In this document: positions 26,141-35,989 of the stretch, one piece after another
Layout: each line of letters starts with the position of its first letter
How positions within the stretch are numbered: the first letter of the stretch is position 1
DNA from: a virus
Taxonomy: Duplodnaviria; Caudoviricetes
Length of the DNA stretch: 64,000 nucleotides
Reading direction: 5' to 3' (one strand)
IMG/VR virus record: IMGVR_UViG_3300042542_005523
Made by a program: the position numbers and the translations under genes
The notes under the pieces: model-generated
Seen by the model: the letters and a program-made list of their open reading frames with translations, nothing else
Told to the model about the DNA's origin: nothing
Database searches by the model: none

Positions 26141-26737
26141 ATGGCACTATCAATAGATACTCTTTATAGAAATAAGAACGTTTTTAATCCCAATAAGGAC
26201 CAGATGAATGCAAATCTTGGTATATGGGATCTTACTAAATCATCACTTAACTATTTGAATGTAAACGTTCAGATAAATTCTATTTATATGCTTAGTGATG
26301 ATGACACGATGAGGCCTGATATAATAGCAGCAGCAAAATACGGGGACCAGTCTTTAATGGGGTCTCTTTGTAAATTTAATAGCATAGCGAATCCATTTGC
26401 GATAGGATCTGGCCAATTCTTATATTTACCTAAGGTATCAACATTTGAGAATGCATTTGATGTAAAAAAGAATCTAGAAAAAGGGGGGAATACAAACTCT
26501 AGTCCTTCGGATGCATTTAGAAAAAGTCAGGAACAAAAGATAGTAAAGGCAAGTGAGGGTAGGAAAAAATTTGTGGAATCCAAGATAAAAAAACAGCCAG
26601 CACAGATACTACCGCCAAACGTGTCGCAAGCCGGTGAAAGGCCAACGGTAAGAAAGAATGGAATTATAGTATTTGGCCCAGATGCGGGTGGTGGTGGAGT
26701 TAACGGTGTTAATAATTCTAACGGTAATCAGCAATAA
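26141..26737 (+). CDS. gp53: baseplate wedge protein, gp53/LysM-like
   Basis: RPDIIAAAKYGD...LCKFNSIANPFAIGSGQFLYLP matches the gp53/LysM pattern. Confidence 0.7.
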   Translation: MALSIDTLYRNKNVFNPNKDQMNANLGIWDLTKSSLNYLNVNVQINSIYMLSDDDTMRPDIIAAAKYGDQSLMGSLCKFNSIANPFAIGSGQFLYLPKVSTFENAFDVKKNLEKGGNTNSSPSDAFRKSQEQKIVKASEGRKKFVESKIKKQPAQILPPNVSQAGERPTVRKNGIIVFGPDAGGGGVNGVNNSNGNQQ

Positions 26738-26745
26738 ATTTTTAA

Positions 26746-28299
26746 ATGGCTACAATATCTAAAGACCAAATTCAAATAGCAACAGTAGCTAGTAACTCCA
26801 TTAAGCTCGATCAAATAGGGGATCTAGCTAAAACTGCCGAGGGTCAGGGCGAGTTAGAGAAGGATCTAGCCGCTGATAATAGCGACGCTACGCTGGGAAG
26901 TAAGACCCCACTTGTCGTTATTAATGGATATTACGTTACCAAGTATCTTCGGTATTTTAACTTAGATATGAATGGGTTTATGCCCGTTATTAGGCTCAGC
27001 TTCACTGCTATGGAAACTTCATTCCTTTCAGTCAGCTACCCTAAAGATGGCGACATAGTATCCGTTTATATCAGATCGCTGGAGGACGTCTATAAGCCCA
27101 TCAGGATGGATTTTAATATACTTACGGTAGATGCAGAATTGACCTCCAAATTAGCTGATAAAGGAATCGATTCGGATGGACTAGGTCAGAATCTGAAGTT
27201 TAATATCCTTGCAGAATGCAGGGTTCCTGGCATTTATACAAACAGAAGTAAATCTTTTGGTGCTTCGACGTCTTACGATACCCTTTTTCAGGTTGCTCAG
27301 GATCTAGATCTTGGATTTTCTACTAATGATTCGAATCTAAACGATACAATGAACTGGCTTTGCCCAAATTATTCCTATTTCGATTTCGTAAAAGATGTAA
27401 CTAGAGATTCGTATAAAGATGACAATAGCTTCTATATGTCTTTTATAGACTGCTATTATAATCTTAATTTTGTAAATATGGGCAGCCAATTTTTATATAG
27501 CGGTGACCCTGAAGTTGTCGCAATGGTTACATTGGGTCCTGCTAGTGTTACGCCCGATGCTGTGATACCTAGTGCTGCTAACCCCTCACTTAAACAGACG
27601 CCACTTGTTATTAGCAACTCTTGGAAGGCCGGATCTGTACCTTTTGCTTTATCCGGATTCATATTAGTTTCGGGTGCAGGCCAGAAATCAAATAAGACCG
27701 GGTATTTCACAAGAATAACTTATTATGACGAGAATAACCAAACCAGTAATGCAGAGGATAAGATTGTTGGGTATGATATAGAATCAGGAACACCCGATAG
27801 CATAGGGGCCAATACAGTTTTACAAAAAGGTAGAGCTACTGAAGATTTGTATAAAAATGAGAGAAGAATAGAATGGCTGGGCGTTGTGAATGAATATAGT
27901 GAGGATAATCCTGGTACCCATCCCAACTATTTCCACGCTAGATACCAGAATTTAATGAATATAGAAGATGCCACAAAGCTTTTGTTTAAAGTTGAGATGG
28001 TCACCTATTTTGCGGGTATTTATAGAGGACAGGTACTGCCAGTTCAGATGTACGTCTATGGTGCACAAGATAAAAGAAAGGATAACACCGGTACGGTAGA
28101 GAATTACAAGTCAGGTAACTCAGATCAGCCAGTTCTTGATAACTTTCTCTCTGGTAATTATGTGGTTGTTGGTATGGATGTTACTTATGATAGTGCTAGA
28201 GGGATGAGGCAGGTGCTCACTTTAGCTAAGAGACAATGGGATATTAACACATCGGGTATTCTTCAAAAATACTCTCCGTTTCCTCTTGTGGATGTTTAA
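26746..28299 (+). CDS. baseplate hub protein (gp27-like)
   Basis: Position between gp53-like and gp5-like genes; ending FLSGNYVVVGMDVTYD...QVLTLAKR is typical of hub proteins. Confidence 0.55.
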   Translation: MATISKDQIQIATVASNSIKLDQIGDLAKTAEGQGELEKDLAADNSDATLGSKTPLVVINGYYVTKYLRYFNLDMNGFMPVIRLSFTAMETSFLSVSYPKDGDIVSVYIRSLEDVYKPIRMDFNILTVDAELTSKLADKGIDSDGLGQNLKFNILAECRVPGIYTNRSKSFGASTSYDTLFQVAQDLDLGFSTNDSNLNDTMNWLCPNYSYFDFVKDVTRDSYKDDNSFYMSFIDCYYNLNFVNMGSQFLYSGDPEVVAMVTLGPASVTPDAVIPSAANPSLKQTPLVISNSWKAGSVPFALSGFILVSGAGQKSNKTGYFTRITYYDENNQTSNAEDKIVGYDIESGTPDSIGANTVLQKGRATEDLYKNERRIEWLGVVNEYSEDNPGTHPNYFHARYQNLMNIEDATKLLFKVEMVTYFAGIYRGQVLPVQMYVYGAQDKRKDNTGTVENYKSGNSDQPVLDNFLSGNYVVVGMDVTYDSARGMRQVLTLAKRQWDINTSGILQKYSPFPLVDV

Positions 28300-28335: not shown

Positions 28336-30750
28336 ATGGCTTGGCCGGGAACAACAGATCAACTCAGGAGTTTATTTCTAAAAGGATTTAAGCTATCAGA
28401 ACAGGGCAAATTCGAAGACCCTACATACCTTGGGTTTAAGGTTGTGATAGACTTCGGAAATCTTCCTATCGATGCCGAGTTTGGTCAACCGCCTAGTCCT
28501 CTTTTTAGAAAGGATAATTATTCATTCCAATCCGGTAATAGCGGATTTTTCAGTTCAAACCCATTCGGGCAGCCAGCTTACTCCGTTAAAGGAAGTCAGA
28601 ATGTGTCCTTTTACTCCGCACAGGGTTATCTGAGGCAAAGAGAAAGCCAATTCTTCAACGGGTCTGGTGGTAAAAGAGCTGATATATTGAATCAATTTTC
28701 AGTTTCTCTTAAGGATCTACTGGACAATTATCCCTGGTTCCTGCAATCTATAGATGGATTAGACGCTTTAGTTAAAGTGGCTAGAACTGGATACATCGGT
28801 GGTGCAGAAGCCGGATTTAACCCATCAAGAACCTCCGGTAAACCGCTAGTATTCACTTGTCTCGAGTCTTTAAATCAGAGAATGACAGCTCTGGGAGAAA
28901 TGTATAAACAAGCAACATTCGATGCTGATCACATGAGAGAAACCGTTCCTAGAAACTTGAGAAGATTCAAGATGTACATATTTGTTACGGAGATAAGAAA
29001 TTTCTTTAAAACATCTAGACTTATTGCATCTTCTGCAGCTTTAACTACGATAAGCAACCTATCCAGCCTGGTAGGTAATAACAACAATCCTGGGTCTACA
29101 AATTCGGCTGATACCGCTAATTCTTTTAATCAGTCCTATGGATCTGATCCCTCTCAGACCCCCGGTGCTTTTAGCGGATTGCTTGGCAATGTTATAGATA
29201 ATTCTGGTCTTGATGGCGAACTTAGCTTATTTAGAAATCAGAGTGATCAAACGGGGATAAAACCTATGTTGATAATGGAGTGCAGTAATTGCGAGTTTGA
29301 TTTTGATGATTCCACCTCTGTGCCTACAACAATAGATGCTGGGTCTGAGTCTGCTAGACCTATCGGGTATTCTTTCAAAGTACACGTCGGAAGGGTAAGA
29401 ACCAAGTATCAATTTCCGAATATTAGAAGTGATCAAAACCCTCTTGTACTATCGGACGGATGGGATCAATCAAAGAGTTCTGTTATGCAGGATCCAACAA
29501 CAACAGGTGGGGCTTTAGGTATAGCAGGAGAGCTTTTAACTAACTTTCTGAGCAACACAGTAGATGATTTTATAAACGAAGGTGTTGCAGAGTACCTAAA
29601 TCCAGCTCTTTCCGGACTGGATCAGACTCTATTGGGTAATATTTACTCCCTGAATCCATCACAGATTCTTAGCGATCTGAGTTATAACTCTGCCCAAAAT
29701 TTCTTAGATCAGGTTACTAATTCAGAACTTAGTCTAAGAAATCTGGATCGACCTTTACCGAACCCTCAGACAACTGGATTCGGTGGACCTCCCGATAGAG
29801 TATATGGTCCTCCCTCTAACTCAGGTGAAGGTGACGTTTACAGAAGGGTTCCTGGACAGGATCTTGGCGTCAGCACTAACGAGACAATTAGCAGGGTGTA
29901 TCCGACTGAGGTAGGCGGGCAAAGCGATGTTTATCGTAATGTACCAGGAAGAGATCTTGGTGTACCAGATAGGGTTTATCCAGATGCAACTAGAGGATCT
30001 GATTCATACAACAACGTTCCTGGACCTGATTTAGGAGTACCTGATAGGGTTTATCCCGTAGTGGACAGCGACGTTTATGATAAAGTACCAGGCGAGGATT
30101 TAGGTGGTCCTGATAGGGTATACCCACCTTCGGATGGCGACTTCTATCCTGATGTACCCGGAAAAGATTTAGGTGGTCCTGGTAGAGTCTATCCGCCAGC
30201 TGAGGGTGATGCATATAATAGAGTACCTGGTGAGGATTTGGGTGTTCCTGGACGTCTATATAGTCCATCGTTAAGGGATGATGTTTATTCTGATGTTCCG
30301 GGAGCTGATTTAGGTGTTCCGGATAGGCTATATCCTCCTTTTAGGGAGGAAGTTTATCCACCAAACTTGGGGACAAGAGAATCGGATATCAATGAAAAAG
30401 TATATCCACCTAATGTTCCGAATGCTAATAGTGATTTAGGATCCTATGACGTTTATCCACCAGTTCCACCTGCGACAAATGCACCAAATTCAATTGGAGA
30501 TGTTTATCCTCCGGTACCACCTGCGACAAATTCACCAAATTCAATTGGTGATGTTTATTCTGGTATCGGTAATTTACAGGCACCTAATGATAATGCGATA
30601 GGTAGGGTTTATCCTAAAACTGTAGAGGATTTTGTTTTGGAGAAAATTATATCACAGAAGGATCTAACTCTAGGAAACTTGAAGCCTGTTGATAAGTATA
30701 ATATAAGCTTAGGTGACTTTAATTCACCAGAGTCTGATTTTGAAATGTAA
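28336..30750 (+). CDS. tail/baseplate protein with Pro/Gly/Asp-rich C-terminal repeats
   Basis: Globular N-terminal half followed by tandem DVY..VPG.DLG.PDRVYP units; lies between hub and spike genes. Confidence 0.55.
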   Translation: MAWPGTTDQLRSLFLKGFKLSEQGKFEDPTYLGFKVVIDFGNLPIDAEFGQPPSPLFRKDNYSFQSGNSGFFSSNPFGQPAYSVKGSQNVSFYSAQGYLRQRESQFFNGSGGKRADILNQFSVSLKDLLDNYPWFLQSIDGLDALVKVARTGYIGGAEAGFNPSRTSGKPLVFTCLESLNQRMTALGEMYKQATFDADHMRETVPRNLRRFKMYIFVTEIRNFFKTSRLIASSAALTTISNLSSLVGNNNNPGSTNSADTANSFNQSYGSDPSQTPGAFSGLLGNVIDNSGLDGELSLFRNQSDQTGIKPMLIMECSNCEFDFDDSTSVPTTIDAGSESARPIGYSFKVHVGRVRTKYQFPNIRSDQNPLVLSDGWDQSKSSVMQDPTTTGGALGIAGELLTNFLSNTVDDFINEGVAEYLNPALSGLDQTLLGNIYSLNPSQILSDLSYNSAQNFLDQVTNSELSLRNLDRPLPNPQTTGFGGPPDRVYGPPSNSGEGDVYRRVPGQDLGVSTNETISRVYPTEVGGQSDVYRNVPGRDLGVPDRVYPDATRGSDSYNNVPGPDLGVPDRVYPVVDSDVYDKVPGEDLGGPDRVYPPSDGDFYPDVPGKDLGGPGRVYPPAEGDAYNRVPGEDLGVPGRLYSPSLRDDVYSDVPGADLGVPDRLYPPFREEVYPPNLGTRESDINEKVYPPNVPNANSDLGSYDVYPPVPPATNAPNSIGDVYPPVPPATNSPNSIGDVYSGIGNLQAPNDNAIGRVYPKTVEDFVLEKIISQKDLTLGNLKPVDKYNISLGDFNSPESDFEM
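29833..30336 (+). repeat. 7 imperfect coding repeats D-x-Y-x-x-V-P-G-x-D-L-G-(V/G)-P-(D/G)-R-(V/L)-Y
   Basis: Read directly from the translation; unit length about 23-28 aa. Confidence 0.9.
30448..30558 (+). repeat. two near-identical 51-bp (17-aa) units DVYPPVPPATN(A/S)PNSIG plus the start of a third
   Basis: Units begin at 30448, 30499 and 30550. Confidence 0.9.
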
Positions 30751-30752
30751 CT

Positions 30753-31433
30753 ATGCCAAGTGAAAGAACCCTACTGGGGATAATAGTAGACATAGATGAT
30801 CCTCTAAAAGAGGCTAGGGCAAAAATCCGTGCTTTTGGATTTTTCGATGATGTTGCAGTAGAGGATCTCCCTTGGGCAGAACAAATCGCTGGATTATCTT
30901 TTGGCGGAGGTGGCGGAGGGGGTAACCTGACTATACCTAGATTGGGAGCTGTTGTAGCGGTTCACTTCGAGGAGAATAATTACTATAAGATTACCTATCA
31001 CTATATTAAGGAGATATCTAGTGATCTTTTGGATAAGATGCAGGAGGATAACTGTTACACGGGTGCAAACTATTTAATATATGATTCCGAGGCAAAACCC
31101 GGTCCTTTGCATATGTACTATACGTATAAGGATGGTGTTGTTTTTGAATTAGATAATGCAAAAATACAACTGGACACACAGAATGGTGGTCAGCTTAGAG
31201 TGGTTGTAAAAATGGGTGACGATGAGATTAGAATGGAGAATAGCAAAGTTATCATAGAATCTGGAAATATAGAACTAGGTAGCGGTACTAGTACATTGGA
31301 AAAGGTTATACTTGGTGATACATTTTTAAGCTTCTTTAATCAGCACACACATGCTACACCAGCAGGACCATCCTCCCCTCCTGCTTCACCGATGACAACA
31401 GCTCAATTGAGTTTCATCACTAAAACTAGGTAA
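30753..31433 (+). CDS. gp5: baseplate central spike (gp5/VgrG OB-fold, HxH tip, no lysozyme domain)
   Basis: GIIVDIDDPLKEARAKIR...LPWA...IPRLGAVVAVHF OB-fold; C-terminal HTH metal-binding tip followed by PAGPSSPP. Confidence 0.85.
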   Translation: MPSERTLLGIIVDIDDPLKEARAKIRAFGFFDDVAVEDLPWAEQIAGLSFGGGGGGGNLTIPRLGAVVAVHFEENNYYKITYHYIKEISSDLLDKMQEDNCYTGANYLIYDSEAKPGPLHMYYTYKDGVVFELDNAKIQLDTQNGGQLRVVVKMGDDEIRMENSKVIIESGNIELGSGTSTLEKVILGDTFLSFFNQHTHATPAGPSSPPASPMTTAQLSFITKTR

Positions 31434-31435
31434 GG

Positions 31436-33364
31436 ATGGCTAATTGGCAGCAATTTATAACGGATTTTTCTAACTTTTTATCTTCTAACCAATCTAGCGG
31501 TCCCTTTCAGACCGGCAAAAAACTATCTGAATATTATGTTAATACCATAAAAGGTGCTAAGGCTATTCCCGCAGGAAATGCTTTAAATGGTAATTTAGCA
31601 CAGAGCTTCAAGCCTATATTAGATCTTGGATTTGGACTTGGCTTTTTTCTTCTACAGAACTCACAGAAAACTTTCAAACAGTTACAGGGAGACGAGAAAT
31701 ATTTCGATGGGTCCAGCCCCATACCTTCCGAGGAGGAGCAAAAGGCGTTTAAAGAACAGCCTCAGGTTCAGGATCAATCCATAGATGATATATTTAATCT
31801 AGTATCCCAGGACGATCTTGAGGATATTAGAAAAAATGGTACTTGGAATTTTTTCCTACATGAGACGGACGGCAAAGAATCAACCAAGATATTTAACTAC
31901 AAAGCTAAAGTAGATTTTAATAACGTAGGTAATACGAAGGTTTCTATATTTGGTAACACATTACAAAAAGCTAAGAGCGGTATAGCTAGGTACGGATTTC
32001 TCCCCGGTATCAATACGATATTAACATACGATAGAGAGGATGCGAAAGAGGATGCCCAGGATGAGATAAATTCTAGAGGCATTGGAGCTTTAACCTTTAA
32101 TGACCTATATAGCTATCTTGTAAAAACTCTAAATGACGATAGAAAGGATAGATTGGATCAAGCGGTAAGAGCAAACACGGGATCGGACAGTGGAACTCAG
32201 GCAGTTAGAAACGATATAGACAATATATTTCTAAGTCTTTATTCTACAGAACTTCAGAAATGGATAGAGATAATAACCCCTTATATTTCTAAGAGTTTGG
32301 CAAATGCATCAGATGAGACATTTTCTGACTCAGCCAAGACAACCCCTTCTTCTCTAGGAATATCATCGGACGGTGAAAATTTTATATCTATAATAGAAGA
32401 GAATTCTATTTTTCCTACTGTTAGCTCCCGATCTGTGACTACAGTAGGTGATTTTCAGAAGGAGGTCCAATTTAAAATTGCAATAAAAGCGGGAAGCGAT
32501 GTTTCTGTATTACGGGACGTTACCCTTAATAACATACAATATGGCCTTGCTGGTACACCGGTAATTGACATAAGGTTTACATTAAATGGATCTGAGGATT
32601 TAAGCGTAGTGGTAACTGATTTATCTACTAGATCTCAGGAAAGATTCACTATAAATAAAGTTTTTGGACAGAATGGTTACCCAGCCGGAAGTCAAAACGA
32701 GACATATAGATTTCCTCCTGGCGGGCCAATTTATCCGTCCGCTGCTGTACAGGAGCAGGATGCTGTAAAAAGCGCAAAAGATTCAATTAATGGTGTACTA
32801 GGGTCTCTGTCCGCTGACTTCCAACAAAAGTTGATAAATTTCGGATTGGATGCTAAGATAGCTGATCTTATGTCTAAGAGCGATCCTTATCTAGTTATGT
32901 CATCTAGTGTAGTCCTATATTGGACTATATTGGGATTGGTTCCTACTTGCTTTGCAGCCAATCCGCCGGTACTTCCTGCTAGCATACCAGCTCCTGGACT
33001 TTTTACTATAATTTTTCCAGGTCTTCCGTTTACGCTTGCTAATAAATTGAGACTGTCTTTTAATGCAGGATTGAATCCCGTCTTTAATCCTGAATTAGAT
33101 CCAAATGGGCTTGTAGAAAAAGCAGCTTCGCTTTCCAATTCTATCGAATCTGAAGAATTTAAAGCTCTTCTTTCCCTTATAGAATCACAGAAGGCCTTGC
33201 TAGAAGCAACAAAGAGCCAAAATCTAGTTTCTAAAGCGGTTTCAACTAAACTCGCAGTTTCTTTTGCATTACATTTGCTTTCTCTGAAGTTTCTATATAC
33301 TGGATCAACTCAGGCAGGACCTGCAACTGTTCCGACCCCTGGATTTGTTTTGCTCGTATTTTAA
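31436..33364 (+). CDS. spike-adjacent baseplate protein containing an Hsp70/DnaK substrate-binding beta-domain
   Basis: aa about 304-406 (nt 32345-32656) align near-gaplessly with DnaK SBD-beta; hydrophobic Pro-rich C-terminus. Confidence 0.75.
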   Translation: MANWQQFITDFSNFLSSNQSSGPFQTGKKLSEYYVNTIKGAKAIPAGNALNGNLAQSFKPILDLGFGLGFFLLQNSQKTFKQLQGDEKYFDGSSPIPSEEEQKAFKEQPQVQDQSIDDIFNLVSQDDLEDIRKNGTWNFFLHETDGKESTKIFNYKAKVDFNNVGNTKVSIFGNTLQKAKSGIARYGFLPGINTILTYDREDAKEDAQDEINSRGIGALTFNDLYSYLVKTLNDDRKDRLDQAVRANTGSDSGTQAVRNDIDNIFLSLYSTELQKWIEIITPYISKSLANASDETFSDSAKTTPSSLGISSDGENFISIIEENSIFPTVSSRSVTTVGDFQKEVQFKIAIKAGSDVSVLRDVTLNNIQYGLAGTPVIDIRFTLNGSEDLSVVVTDLSTRSQERFTINKVFGQNGYPAGSQNETYRFPPGGPIYPSAAVQEQDAVKSAKDSINGVLGSLSADFQQKLINFGLDAKIADLMSKSDPYLVMSSSVVLYWTILGLVPTCFAANPPVLPASIPAPGLFTIIFPGLPFTLANKLRLSFNAGLNPVFNPELDPNGLVEKAASLSNSIESEEFKALLSLIESQKALLEATKSQNLVSKAVSTKLAVSFALHLLSLKFLYTGSTQAGPATVPTPGFVLLVF

Positions 33365-33385: not shown

Positions 33386-33423
33386 CATAAGAAACTAATA
33401 TTAACCATTTAAAACTAAAATTG

Positions 33424-34593
33424 ATGTATCAAGAATTCGAAAATGAAGAATTCAGTTGGGAAAATTCAAACGGATTTAAGCCTAACAAAAAAATTAAGAA
33501 TAATCACGGGATGACTATTTATTGTCATGCTGATTATGCTGAAGAACTTGCTGCGGCATACGCTAAGCATTCTGAAGGACTAGATTGGAATGATCTAGCT
33601 AAGGATCTAGTTGATGGCAGAATGTACCCTTGTAAAATTGTTGCTTTAACTGAAGAAGAGGCTTTTGCCCAGACTGACTCAGGTCAAACAATTTATATTG
33701 ACCTGAAGAAGGAAAGAAGGGATGCTGAAAAATTAAATATCGAGGGTATTGATTTTACAGTAGGTACTAGAATAGAAGCTCACGTTAGAAGAACTCCTAA
33801 GGGATATCTTGGATCTGTTGTTGAGCATTATATAAAGACGCTGAAGTCTGAACTTTTTGATCAAATCAAAAAAGAAACTACAGCTTATAAAGTAAAGGTT
33901 GAGAGCATAAATAAAGGTGGATATATTGTCGATCTTTGTGGTATTAAGTGTTTCATGCCTGGATCCTTGGCTGCAGCTAATAAGATCAAGGATTTCGAAT
34001 CCTATATTGGAAAGGATATACACGTAATGATGGAAGGCTATATAGAGGCAAAAGATACCTTCATTGTTTCTTACAAGAAGTATATTTCCAAGATTATGGA
34101 GCAGAAGATTCAAGAGCTTGACCTAACCAGGAAATATAAAGGCTCCATCACTGGAACAAGCCCATTTGGAGTTTTTGTTGAGTGGGAGGAGATCTATACT
34201 GGCTTGATCCATAAGAGCGAGTTCGAGAGTGACGATGAATTGTCCAAACTTTGTTCAGGTGACGAGATAGAATTCTATGTGAAGGAGATTAAAGAGAACA
34301 ATAAATTGACTCTAACGCTAGATAGACCCTTAGAAAGAAACGTAATTCTTTATGATATTGAGACTCGTGTCGAGGAAGGCACAATAGAGCCAATGCAAGC
34401 TCTCATCAAGCACAAAAGAAAAAATGGAGTGCTTATAGAGATAAGCGATATTGGTCTAATGGCATTTATAAGTTCCGAGCATTTGGGTAAAGGCGATAGA
34501 AATGCTAAGACTGGTGATCCTATTGAAATATTAATATGGAAGATAGACGTTCACACAGGAAAAATATTTGCTAAATCCATAAATGAAGGATAA
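33424..34593 (+). CDS. rpsA: ribosomal protein S1 homolog (four S1/OB domains)
   Basis: KVKVESINKGGYIVDLCGIKCFMPGS (S1 domain 2 pattern), YKGSITGTSPFGVFVEW...GLIHKSE (domain 3 pattern), plus flanking degenerate S1 domains. ATG 33424 preferred over TTG 33421. Confidence 0.85.
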   Translation: MYQEFENEEFSWENSNGFKPNKKIKNNHGMTIYCHADYAEELAAAYAKHSEGLDWNDLAKDLVDGRMYPCKIVALTEEEAFAQTDSGQTIYIDLKKERRDAEKLNIEGIDFTVGTRIEAHVRRTPKGYLGSVVEHYIKTLKSELFDQIKKETTAYKVKVESINKGGYIVDLCGIKCFMPGSLAAANKIKDFESYIGKDIHVMMEGYIEAKDTFIVSYKKYISKIMEQKIQELDLTRKYKGSITGTSPFGVFVEWEEIYTGLIHKSEFESDDELSKLCSGDEIEFYVKEIKENNKLTLTLDRPLERNVILYDIETRVEEGTIEPMQALIKHKRKNGVLIEISDIGLMAFISSEHLGKGDRNAKTGDPIEILIWKIDVHTGKIFAKSINEG

Positions 34594-35989
34594 TAGAAAC
34601 CATTTTGAAAAAGCTCAGGCTCTTTCTTTGTCTGATGTTGGGTTTGAATTCGAATTCTTTTCCAATGTTACCAAAGGAAGAGCTGCTGATGCTCTTTCGA
34701 AACTTCTCGGTAAAAAAGTAGATGTATCTAATAAATACCACTCGGATATACCGGTTAACAGGGAGAGATTCAAGTTAGAGCCGGATTACTCGGGGGGTAT
34801 AAGTATGTTAGAACTTGTTACTGGTCCAATGAGTTATAACGAGGCTATACCTGTTATGATCAAGATCCTAAAATGGATAGACGAGAATGGATGGACAAGC
34901 GATAAATGCGCTTTCCAATTCTCAGTTAGTTTTAACCCGGAGAGAGCCAATCTTAAAAATGCGATACAAACGATGGATCATTTAAAGTTCATCCTTGGTA
35001 TTGACGAGAATTTCATTTATTCTAAGTTTGGTAACAGAACAAAGAATGTCTATGCTAAATCTATAAAAAGGGTTTTACCCAGAAGTAGATACATGATATT
35101 GGAGAATATTAGCACTATAGACCCAATGATGTTTAAGACACCTAGTGACAAGTACTATGGTGTGAATTTCACAAAGGCTCCTGATGGATATTTAGAGTTC
35201 AGGTATTTAGGTGGTAAGGATTATCAGAAAAAGATAGAGCCAATCAGAGAGGTTGTTGAATATATCATTCTGTATCTCTATGATATAGTTAGCAAAAGAA
35301 TGGGAGGCTATAGTAAGGAGGACCTAGATAAGCTAAAATCAATGATGAAGGATTATGCTAATGTTGTAAAATGCTTCTCTAAACCTGAGCTTTTCCTTAG
35401 ATATTATCCCGACTTCAAGATATTTATAGATCTTAAAGGATTTGACGGTAATCTAAGAACATATTTCCCTGCAATCAGGGATAAGGTATTTGATCTTGTT
35501 ATAGAAGGCGGTATAACAGATTGCTTTTTTAATTATGACACATCCACAGGGAGATGCCAACTTAAAGGTGCAAGGTCTAGAAATTCTTTTGAGATCTACG
35601 ATTTTGACGTGATTGATTGCGATATAAAGGGTTCTTATTTAAAGAAGTGCAACATATACGATTCTAAGATTAACAAATCAAATCTAGATGAATGCTACCT
35701 AGTAAGAGGTACAGATGTTCTTAATTCTAGAATAGAAGCATGCTCTGTTGAACCTACTAATAAGCTTAAGGACTGCTACATAAACTGTGAACAGAAATCT
35801 ATCAATTGCGAGATTGATGGCGGAGTGCTAAGAGCAGGTATACTTGGTGAATATGCTGAATTAAGTAAGGACACTAAAAAAGTCAAGGGATGGAACGAGG
35901 TTAGAAATGAAAGATTCATAACTGATAAAAGACTTCAGGACCTAAACGATAAATATAAAGGAGCCAAATTTGGCGATATGAATTATTAA
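34583..35989 (+). CDS. putative amidoligase (COOH-NH2 ligase fold) with C-terminal pentapeptide-like beta-helix
   Basis: VGFEFEF, EPDYSGG, LELVTGPM, KYYGVNF, YLEFRYLGG; the CG.HVH motif reads CAFQFS; I/L every fifth residue in the C-terminus. Confidence 0.7.
   Translation: MKDNRNHFEKAQALSLSDVGFEFEFFSNVTKGRAADALSKLLGKKVDVSNKYHSDIPVNRERFKLEPDYSGGISMLELVTGPMSYNEAIPVMIKILKWIDENGWTSDKCAFQFSVSFNPERANLKNAIQTMDHLKFILGIDENFIYSKFGNRTKNVYAKSIKRVLPRSRYMILENISTIDPMMFKTPSDKYYGVNFTKAPDGYLEFRYLGGKDYQKKIEPIREVVEYIILYLYDIVSKRMGGYSKEDLDKLKSMMKDYANVVKCFSKPELFLRYYPDFKIFIDLKGFDGNLRTYFPAIRDKVFDLVIEGGITDCFFNYDTSTGRCQLKGARSRNSFEIYDFDVIDCDIKGSYLKKCNIYDSKINKSNLDECYLVRGTDVLNSRIEACSVEPTNKLKDCYINCEQKSINCEIDGGVLRAGILGEYAELSKDTKKVKGWNEVRNERFITDKRLQDLNDKYKGAKFGDMNY

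Follow-up and report, generated by a model that had tools for sequence, protein, structure and literature searches.

A lone Hsp70 substrate-binding β-domain embedded in a phage protein encoded next to a gp5-like spike gene

Introduction

The substrate-binding domains (SBDs) of Hsp70 chaperones are familiar, almost without exception, as the subordinate half of a machine driven by ATP. In canonical Hsp70, the J-domain binds to the nucleotide-binding ATPase domain (NBD) and the interdomain linker, which transmit its signal. Plant viruses of the closterovirus group encode Hsp70h, a virion-tail-associated Hsp70 homologue in which the ATPase domain is kept. Here we describe the β-sandwich part of an Hsp70 SBD (SBD-β) embedded in a phage protein of 642 amino acids (aa). 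The protein, P0001, is encoded by an open reading frame (ORF) at 31436..33364 on the plus strand of a 64,000-nucleotide (nt) stretch of Caudoviricetes DNA, IMG/VR record IMGVR_UViG_3300042542_005523, which we refer to as the window.

The closest relative in fold is the SBD-β of cellular Hsp70s (E. coli DnaK 393-507, PDB 1dkz and 4ezq; Kar2, 3h0x), with which the phage domain shares the eight-stranded sandwich, 24-29% identity, the pocket positions, Q433 and P419 (DnaK numbering). The phage copy differs in having no ATPase domain, linker or lid, in its changed arch, latch and loop L4,5, and in being embedded in an unrelated helical protein. The nearest conceptual precedent is closterovirus Hsp70h, likewise an Hsp70-derived protein recruited to the assembly or structure of a virus particle, a role that is putative for the phage protein; Hsp70h, however, belongs to a eukaryotic RNA virus and has an ATPase, whereas the phage keeps SBD-β only, inside another protein. 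Full-length phage DnaK proteins (PHROG 22485; the dnaK of contig G002, IMGVR_UViG_3300032319_000936; the moraphage DnaK, PMC12619734) share the phage lineage and the domain family, but they are canonical DnaKs, and the embedded domain, at 30% identity to the full-length phage DnaK, is set apart from it by a long branch of its own. Some tape measure proteins, such as TM4 Tmp and T5 pb2 (see also PMC12619734), are likewise tail-cluster proteins that carry an accessory globular domain in a variable middle; the protein described here differs from them in having a compact core rather than an extended ruler, and has no sequence link to tape-measure families.

The literature that we searched describes phage DnaK, DnaJ and Hsp20 and contains no phage morphogenesis protein with a lone Hsp70 SBD, which agrees with an earlier note on this DNA, made from the sequence alone, whose author knew of no described baseplate protein with this domain. 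The domain is of a known kind; the architecture is new.

Results

Residues 302-411 of the 642-aa ORF, encoded at 32339..32668 (+), are a genuine Hsp70 SBD-β. They correspond to DnaK 394-506 and form eight strands, with no linker before them and no lid after them. The 104-aa peptide quoted in the earlier note is found letter for letter at aa 303-406, that is, at nt 32342-32653; the position given for it there, 32345-32656, is shifted by 3 nt. The Pfam HSP70 profile (PF00012) matches protein residues 302-409 at profile positions 389-499 of 599 with 26.9 bits (curated cut-off, 20.6), a span confined to the SBD-β part of the profile, and aa 290-420 scanned alone against the same profile gave an E-value of 7.7e-8. 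A phmmer search of PDB sequences returned 60+ chains, all of them Hsp70 SBDs, including SSB1 (1.9e-7, the best), the mortalin SBD (8e-7), the DnaK SBD 1dkz (4e-4) and Hsp70-1A. By BLASTP against the DnaK of E. coli K-12 (sequence from the genome record), the domain is 28% identical across 114 aa, with a single gap of 3 residues and E 5e-9, which reproduces the alignment with one short gap drawn in the earlier note. An hhalign comparison of a 12-member family profile with E. coli DnaK gave a probability of 96.7% (E 4.7e-10) and covered DnaK 394-506 only.

The structural comparisons agree. An AlphaFold2 model of the full 642-aa protein is poor overall (mean predicted local distance difference test score, pLDDT, 53). 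Within it, aa 300-410 reach a pLDDT of 68-81 and fold into eight strands at 306-406. Foldseek placed DnaK SBD chains among the top PDB matches of this model (E ~1e-10), and VIA-align superposed it on the SBDs of Kar2, DnaK, Hsp70 and BiP with Z 14-16 and a root-mean-square deviation (rmsd) of 2.0-2.5 Å over 111-118 residues. The assignment to SBD-β made in the earlier note is thereby borne out at both the profile level (Pfam HSP70, hhalign) and the structural level (Foldseek, VIA-align). Across five lines of evidence (Pfam; phmmer; BLASTP; hhalign; AlphaFold2 with Foldseek and VIA-align), the match lies far beyond what chance can account for.

The remaining parts of an Hsp70 are missing, as the earlier note had stated, and each was tested for directly by Pfam, residue alignment, hhalign or phmmer. 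No ATPase domain was found: the Pfam match covers profile positions 389-499 only, and phmmer with DnaK 1-385 against P0001 and the two divergent carriers P0022 and P0023 was empty. The VLLLD interdomain linker is absent, the aligned positions reading D/E-S/G-A/S-K. No helical lid (SBD-α) was found either, as the hhalign homology ends at DnaK G506 and phmmer with DnaK 508-605 was empty. We considered and rejected a remnant lid after the domain, given that the 220-column Foldseek alignments have an rmsd of ~15 Å and that neither hhalign nor phmmer finds a lid.

Residues at DnaK I401, I472, Q433 and P419 are invariant in the phage domains (Ile at I401 and I472). At the other DnaK pocket positions, F426 is replaced by V/I/L/F, V436 by A/V and I438 by F/I/V. 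Few columns of the alignment are as well conserved as the pocket positions and Q433, and this holds even for P0022 and P0023, whose domains are 27-32% identical to that of P0001. At the arch over the groove, M404 becomes Asp/Asn (S or G in P0022 and P0023) and A429 becomes V/I/L. The latch residue R467 is Ala in the phage domain, loop L4,5 carries a 3-residue deletion relative to DnaK, and other residues stand at K414 and D481, which are NBD-contact positions. As read from the aligned residues, the hydrophobic pocket is kept and the arch is altered.

Within the protein family to which P0001 belongs, the SBD is carried by the P0001 clade, P0022 (773 aa) and P0023 (701 aa) only. The earlier note had regarded the domain as an insertion and had proposed a search for homologues without it in related phages; such orthologues exist, with lengths of 312, 475 and 531 aa, and occupy the same gene order. 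Compared with the short member P0027, the SBD and the other extra material of P0001 fall between P0027 residues 151 and 158, in a loop between two helices. A tree built on core columns alone, leaving out those of the SBD, unites the SBD-bearing proteins in one clade (SH-like approximate likelihood ratio test, SH-aLRT, 89) that is sister to the SBD-less P0024 (96), so that a single change, and hence a single acquisition, explains the distribution of the domain. In a tree of the SBD segment, the family's domains group together (82) with the same internal order as in the core tree; P0022 and P0023 form long branches there, which makes this tree supportive rather than decisive. The two trees indicate that the Hsp70 SBD-β was inserted once and then inherited vertically across the clade.

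The mean identity within the clade is 71%. Comparison of the window with an 87%-identical orthologue gave a ratio of nonsynonymous to synonymous substitution rates (dN/dS) of 0.14 in the domain and 0.10 in the whole gene. A dN/dS of 0.14 points to purifying selection and thus to a functional domain rather than a relic.

Also in the SBD tree, the full-length DnaK of a related phage falls outside the family clade, among canonical DnaK-like domains (E. coli's included) whose branching is not resolved. A recent copy of the phage's own dnaK was rejected as the source, since the embedded domain is 30% identical to it and has its own long branch elsewhere in the tree. When the nearest SBD donors were classified with NCBIfam, only divergent, sub-threshold DnaK/HscA-like Hsp70s came out, and the source lineage could not be named.

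Among the 91 best significant matches to the domain from 1.84 billion representatives, this family alone provides full-length SBD proteins without an ATPase domain; the other matches without an NBD are short pieces of 112-418 aa, most likely gene fragments. We also observed five metagenomic full-length Hsp70s (P0076, P0078, P0058, P0050 and P0071) that carry two tandem SBD-β after one ATPase domain, a further uncommon arrangement for an Hsp70.

P0001 has 15 full-length homologues at 60-94% identity, and an exhaustive HMMER scan of the 1.84 billion representatives extended the family to ~50 representative clusters of 297-773 aa. The family start, M-[AP]-[AN]-x-W-x-x-F-I, and end, ...P-M-I-G-F-V-P-x-V-F, are conserved. 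Between them lies a middle region of 86-531 aa, which is hypervariable although the adjoining genes keep their sizes. Pfam and PHROGs gave no match for 40 family members, tblastn of P0001, P0034 and P0027 found none in 50,697 cultured-phage records, and the family profile matched neither Lak-A1, LR756500, PAU and PTm5 nor any PDB sequence. Nothing was found in RNA runs or in the ESM Atlas searched by features.

The P0001 ORF can be divided into modules around the SBD. The conserved N-terminal core module (31436..31885, +; ~aa 1-150) begins with the family start motif, has a mean pairwise identity of 84% over aa 1-100 in the P0001 clade, aligns to P0027 residues 3-129 and is helical in the P0027 model. 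The helical extension that follows (31886..32338, +; ~aa 151-301) is common to the SBD-less sister P0024 up to ~aa 289, with P0024 3-292 matching P0001 2-289, and has predicted helices at P0001 169-291 (pLDDT 65-85). The close homologue P0007 (678 aa) carries an extra 36-aa insertion in this extension (alignment columns 240-275), so the middle region tolerates insertions at more than one site.

After the SBD comes a post-domain segment (32669..32860, +; aa 412-475), made of a conserved Pro/Gly-rich linker (FG..YP.GSQ..YRFPPGGPI.PS) and then helices. The segment is missing from P0024 and therefore belongs to the inserted piece, and neither hhalign nor phmmer detected homology to the DnaK lid. 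Its Pro-rich linker (aa 412-435; 32669-32740; YRFPPGGPIYPS) directly follows the domain and recalls the Pro-rich peptides bound by DnaK and HscA; by folding back, it might occupy the groove in the manner of a pseudo-substrate. Its conservation has exceptions: P0019 lacks the linker, and P0022 and P0023 do not conserve it.

The protein ends in a conserved C-terminal core module (32861..33361, +; aa 476-642) with the motifs DPY..M....YW and PPVPP..IP.PG and the terminal ...PTPGFVLLVF. An AlphaFold2 model of P0027 (314 aa; 48-sequence alignment) reached a pLDDT of 85 and a predicted template-modelling (TM) score, pTM, of 0.70. In this model the C module packs on the N module, and the two are predicted to make up a single compact helical core that includes a small sheet of three strands. 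Foldseek searches with the core model against PDB, VIA-wide, AFDB and BFVD gave no convincing match. The model resembles viral ESM Atlas clusters of 188-199 aa (TM by the hit, 0.83 and 0.69; rmsd 2.8-3.3 Å), which are nameless, minimal proteins of the same helical core fold that differ from P0001 in having no long insert.

P0001 has hydrophobic stretches at aa 484-535 and 597-624. We rejected a transmembrane reading of these stretches because most family members have a non-hydrophobic version of this module; by alignment the stretches are variants, particular to the clade, of a motif with a polar character in other members, consistent with a folded motif rather than a membrane anchor. That the SBD shields the hydrophobic C module in cis was likewise rejected, as the SBD-less P0024 is equally hydrophobic and the link is confounded by descent.

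The window carries a run of phage genes on the plus strand with 33-43% G+C. Immediately upstream of the P0001 gene is a gp5-like spike gene (30753..31433, +; 226 aa) with an OB domain, in which no lysozyme domain was detected. Its product matches phrog_430 (5.8e-13), phrog_37871 (9e-13) and Pfam Phage_base_V (0.0027), and weakly matches Gp5 and central spike chains in PDB, so the gene does adjoin a gp5-type spike gene, as the earlier note had it. At the junction (TAAGGATG; 31431..31438, +), the spike stop codon TAA is followed by 2 nt and then by the ATG of the 642-aa ORF, with a purine-rich AGG/AAGG stretch just 5' of the start. The 2-nt gap, together with equally tight packing of the upstream genes, makes co-expression with the spike gene very likely, and the ORF is likely to be translationally coupled to it, judging from this arrangement.

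In every locus examined, a spike gene of ~225 aa is followed by this gene and then by an S1 or amidoligase gene, and by gp13, gp25 and gp6 where the locus extends that far. Neighbouring genes in the loci without the SBD have the same sizes as in the window. In the window, the genes at 33421-35989, between the spike cluster and a gp13-like neck gene, encode proteins that match Pfam S1 (2.8e-15) and Amidoligase_2 (5.3e-06), unusual company for morphogenesis genes. The S1/amidoligase order is kept in most relatives, and relative L005 has no S1 gene.

Just upstream of the spike gene lies a gene for an 804-aa protein (28336-30750) with seven tandem 23-aa Pro-rich units (GD.Y..VPG.DLGVPDRVYP.P) at ~aa 500-690 (nt ~29830-30400). 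Its orthologues are 798-1114 aa long and have 4-14 strict PGxDLG motifs, or more when counted by a looser R-V-Y-P motif. No family match was found for the 804-aa protein, which could be an extended fibre or a ruler-like hub element. Co-occurrence of the SBD with these repeats was considered and rejected; the repeats are present with and without the domain. Further upstream, a 198-aa protein (26141-26737) is LysM/gpX-like by eye and weakly matches a PHROG named 'tail sheath', and a 517-aa protein (26746-28299) looks by eye like a gp27/gpD-type hub; neither has a Pfam or PDB sequence match.

The record nearest to the window is a 47-kb fragment with an estimated completeness of 17%, from which a genome of ~280 kb is likely. 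The gene is found in lake-water metagenomes (20 runs listed, each from a separate study, six of which may be where this DNA came from). The gp6-like wedge protein is closest to those of uncultured huge phages, Lak phages and phages of Tenacibaculum, Flavobacterium and Chryseobacterium; gp6, gp13, gp25 and PhoH are present, and a 181-kb relative encodes a full-length dnaK. Moraphages are freshwater jumbo phages of 200-307 kb with Bacteroidota hosts, DnaK/DnaJ and a core of gp6, gp13, gp25 and PhoH (PMC12619734). The phage of the window is a probable member of the moraphage lineage, and the SBD clade probably consists of lake-water jumbo phages infecting Bacteroidota. In contig G002, we observed that the full-length dnaK is split at DLGG|GTFD by a group I intron (L012:1121-1510, minus strand; Rfam RF00028, 50.6 bits, E 3.6e-11).

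Discussion

We give even chances to the reading that the protein is a spike/hub-associated accessory with a swappable middle module, in which the SBD would serve as an ATP-independent peptide clamp. A conserved core with a hypervariable insert, encoded beside the spike, suggests a carrier of interchangeable modules that face the host or a variable partner. In this reading, the compact helical core built from the N and C modules would carry the interchangeable module in a surface loop. With neither an ATPase domain nor a lid, the isolated SBD would be expected to rest in a closed, high-affinity, ADP-like state. An extended, partly hydrophobic segment of a partner could be held in the pocket, which is kept (Ile309, Val334, Val344, Phe346 and the Ile at the position of DnaK I472), and the changed arch (M404 to Asp/Asn; A429 to Val/Ile) may alter specificity. 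Candidate partners are a component of the phage hub or spike, or a host envelope protein met at infection. A more specific proposal, close to the host-surface clamp suggested in the earlier note, is that the protein rides on or in the spike-hub complex and delivers the SBD to the host envelope, where it would clamp an extended host segment with no need for ATP; an outer-membrane or periplasmic protein could offer such a segment in an unfolded or linker region. We regard this proposal as unlikely.

Several observations weigh against a peptide clamp in a structural protein. The hydrophobic residues that are kept also form the core of the sandwich, and their conservation is no proof of an open groove. 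Neither of the DnaK arch residues is kept and there is no lid; in DnaK, such changes make binding weaker and faster. The S1-domain and amidoligase genes in the same cluster are not obviously structural, so the position of the gene alone does not prove a structural role. The label of baseplate or virion protein used in the earlier note is retained in part: the gene does lie in the spike/hub cluster, but a baseplate identity is putative. The host family has no Pfam or PHROGs match and its core no solved relative.

The altered groove is also what gives some weight to reuse of the fold with no clamp function, as a rigid spacer or a new interaction surface whose canonical groove is unused. Both arch residues are replaced, R467 is Ala and L4,5 is shortened by three residues, and other clades carry unrelated inserts at the same site; the strong conservation of the pocket positions and Q433, even in the divergent domains of P0022 and P0023, speaks against such a loss of function, and we consider it improbable. 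The main rival to the clamp reading, possible if doubtful, is that the protein would be an assembly factor absent from the virion, a dedicated holdase for the spike, the hub or the Pro-rich 804-aa neighbour that would grip unfolded segments during trimerisation and leave before completion, as the earlier note had also suggested for the spike. Tail-fibre chaperones are encoded just downstream of their clients, and by analogy this gene comes directly after the spike gene, to which it is likely coupled; the fold is moreover the client-binding domain of a chaperone, a related phage has its own dnaK, and the probable lineage is reported to have DnaK/DnaJ (PMC12619734). Most family members, however, work without the SBD, the likely clients keep their size and repeats with or without it, and a middle region that ranges from 86 to 531 aa would seem host-facing rather than housekeeping.

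No tape measure has been identified in moraphages (PMC12619734), and P0001 could in principle fill that role, as a tape measure or as a channel protein that is ejected, its globular domain being embedded like those of TM4 Tmp and T5 pb2. The helix-rich, low-confidence model of the full-length protein, its hydrophobic stretches at aa 484-535 and 597-624, and a weak AFDB lead, a 160-aa entry named 'tape measure C-terminal domain' (probability 0.90, E 1.5), would fit this role. It is disfavoured by the compact core predicted by AlphaFold2 for the N and C modules, by the 2.5-fold range in length (312-773 aa) within an identical gene order whose neighbouring tail genes keep their size, by the C module, which is not hydrophobic in most of the family, and by the lack of a Pfam tape-measure match and an hhalign probability of 0.07% against lambda gpH; we judge it very unlikely. 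The decoy for host DnaK partners proposed in the earlier note, an ejected or early-acting SBD that would sequester clients or co-chaperones of the host DnaK, fares worst of that note's three mechanisms. The phage lineage does manipulate chaperones, given the moraphage report (PMC12619734) and the dnaK of a relative, but a domain with no NBD or linker and with changed NBD-contact residues (K414, D481), encoded in a late morphogenesis cluster and apparently coupled to the spike gene, makes this role highly improbable.

If the clamp reading with delivery to the host envelope is true, the client-binding fold of a chaperone would have been repurposed as an infection device, as one among several payloads carried at the same loop. 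An isolated SBD, without lid or linker and under purifying selection, implies that the clamp alone can be useful, and the phage domain may offer a minimal natural model for nucleotide-independent peptide binding, an activity that is putative here. The gene defines a new phage protein family with a compact core, encoded after the spike gene, and a hypervariable insert. It may serve freshwater jumbo phages generally as a vehicle for accessory modules; the tail biology of these phages has hardly been annotated.

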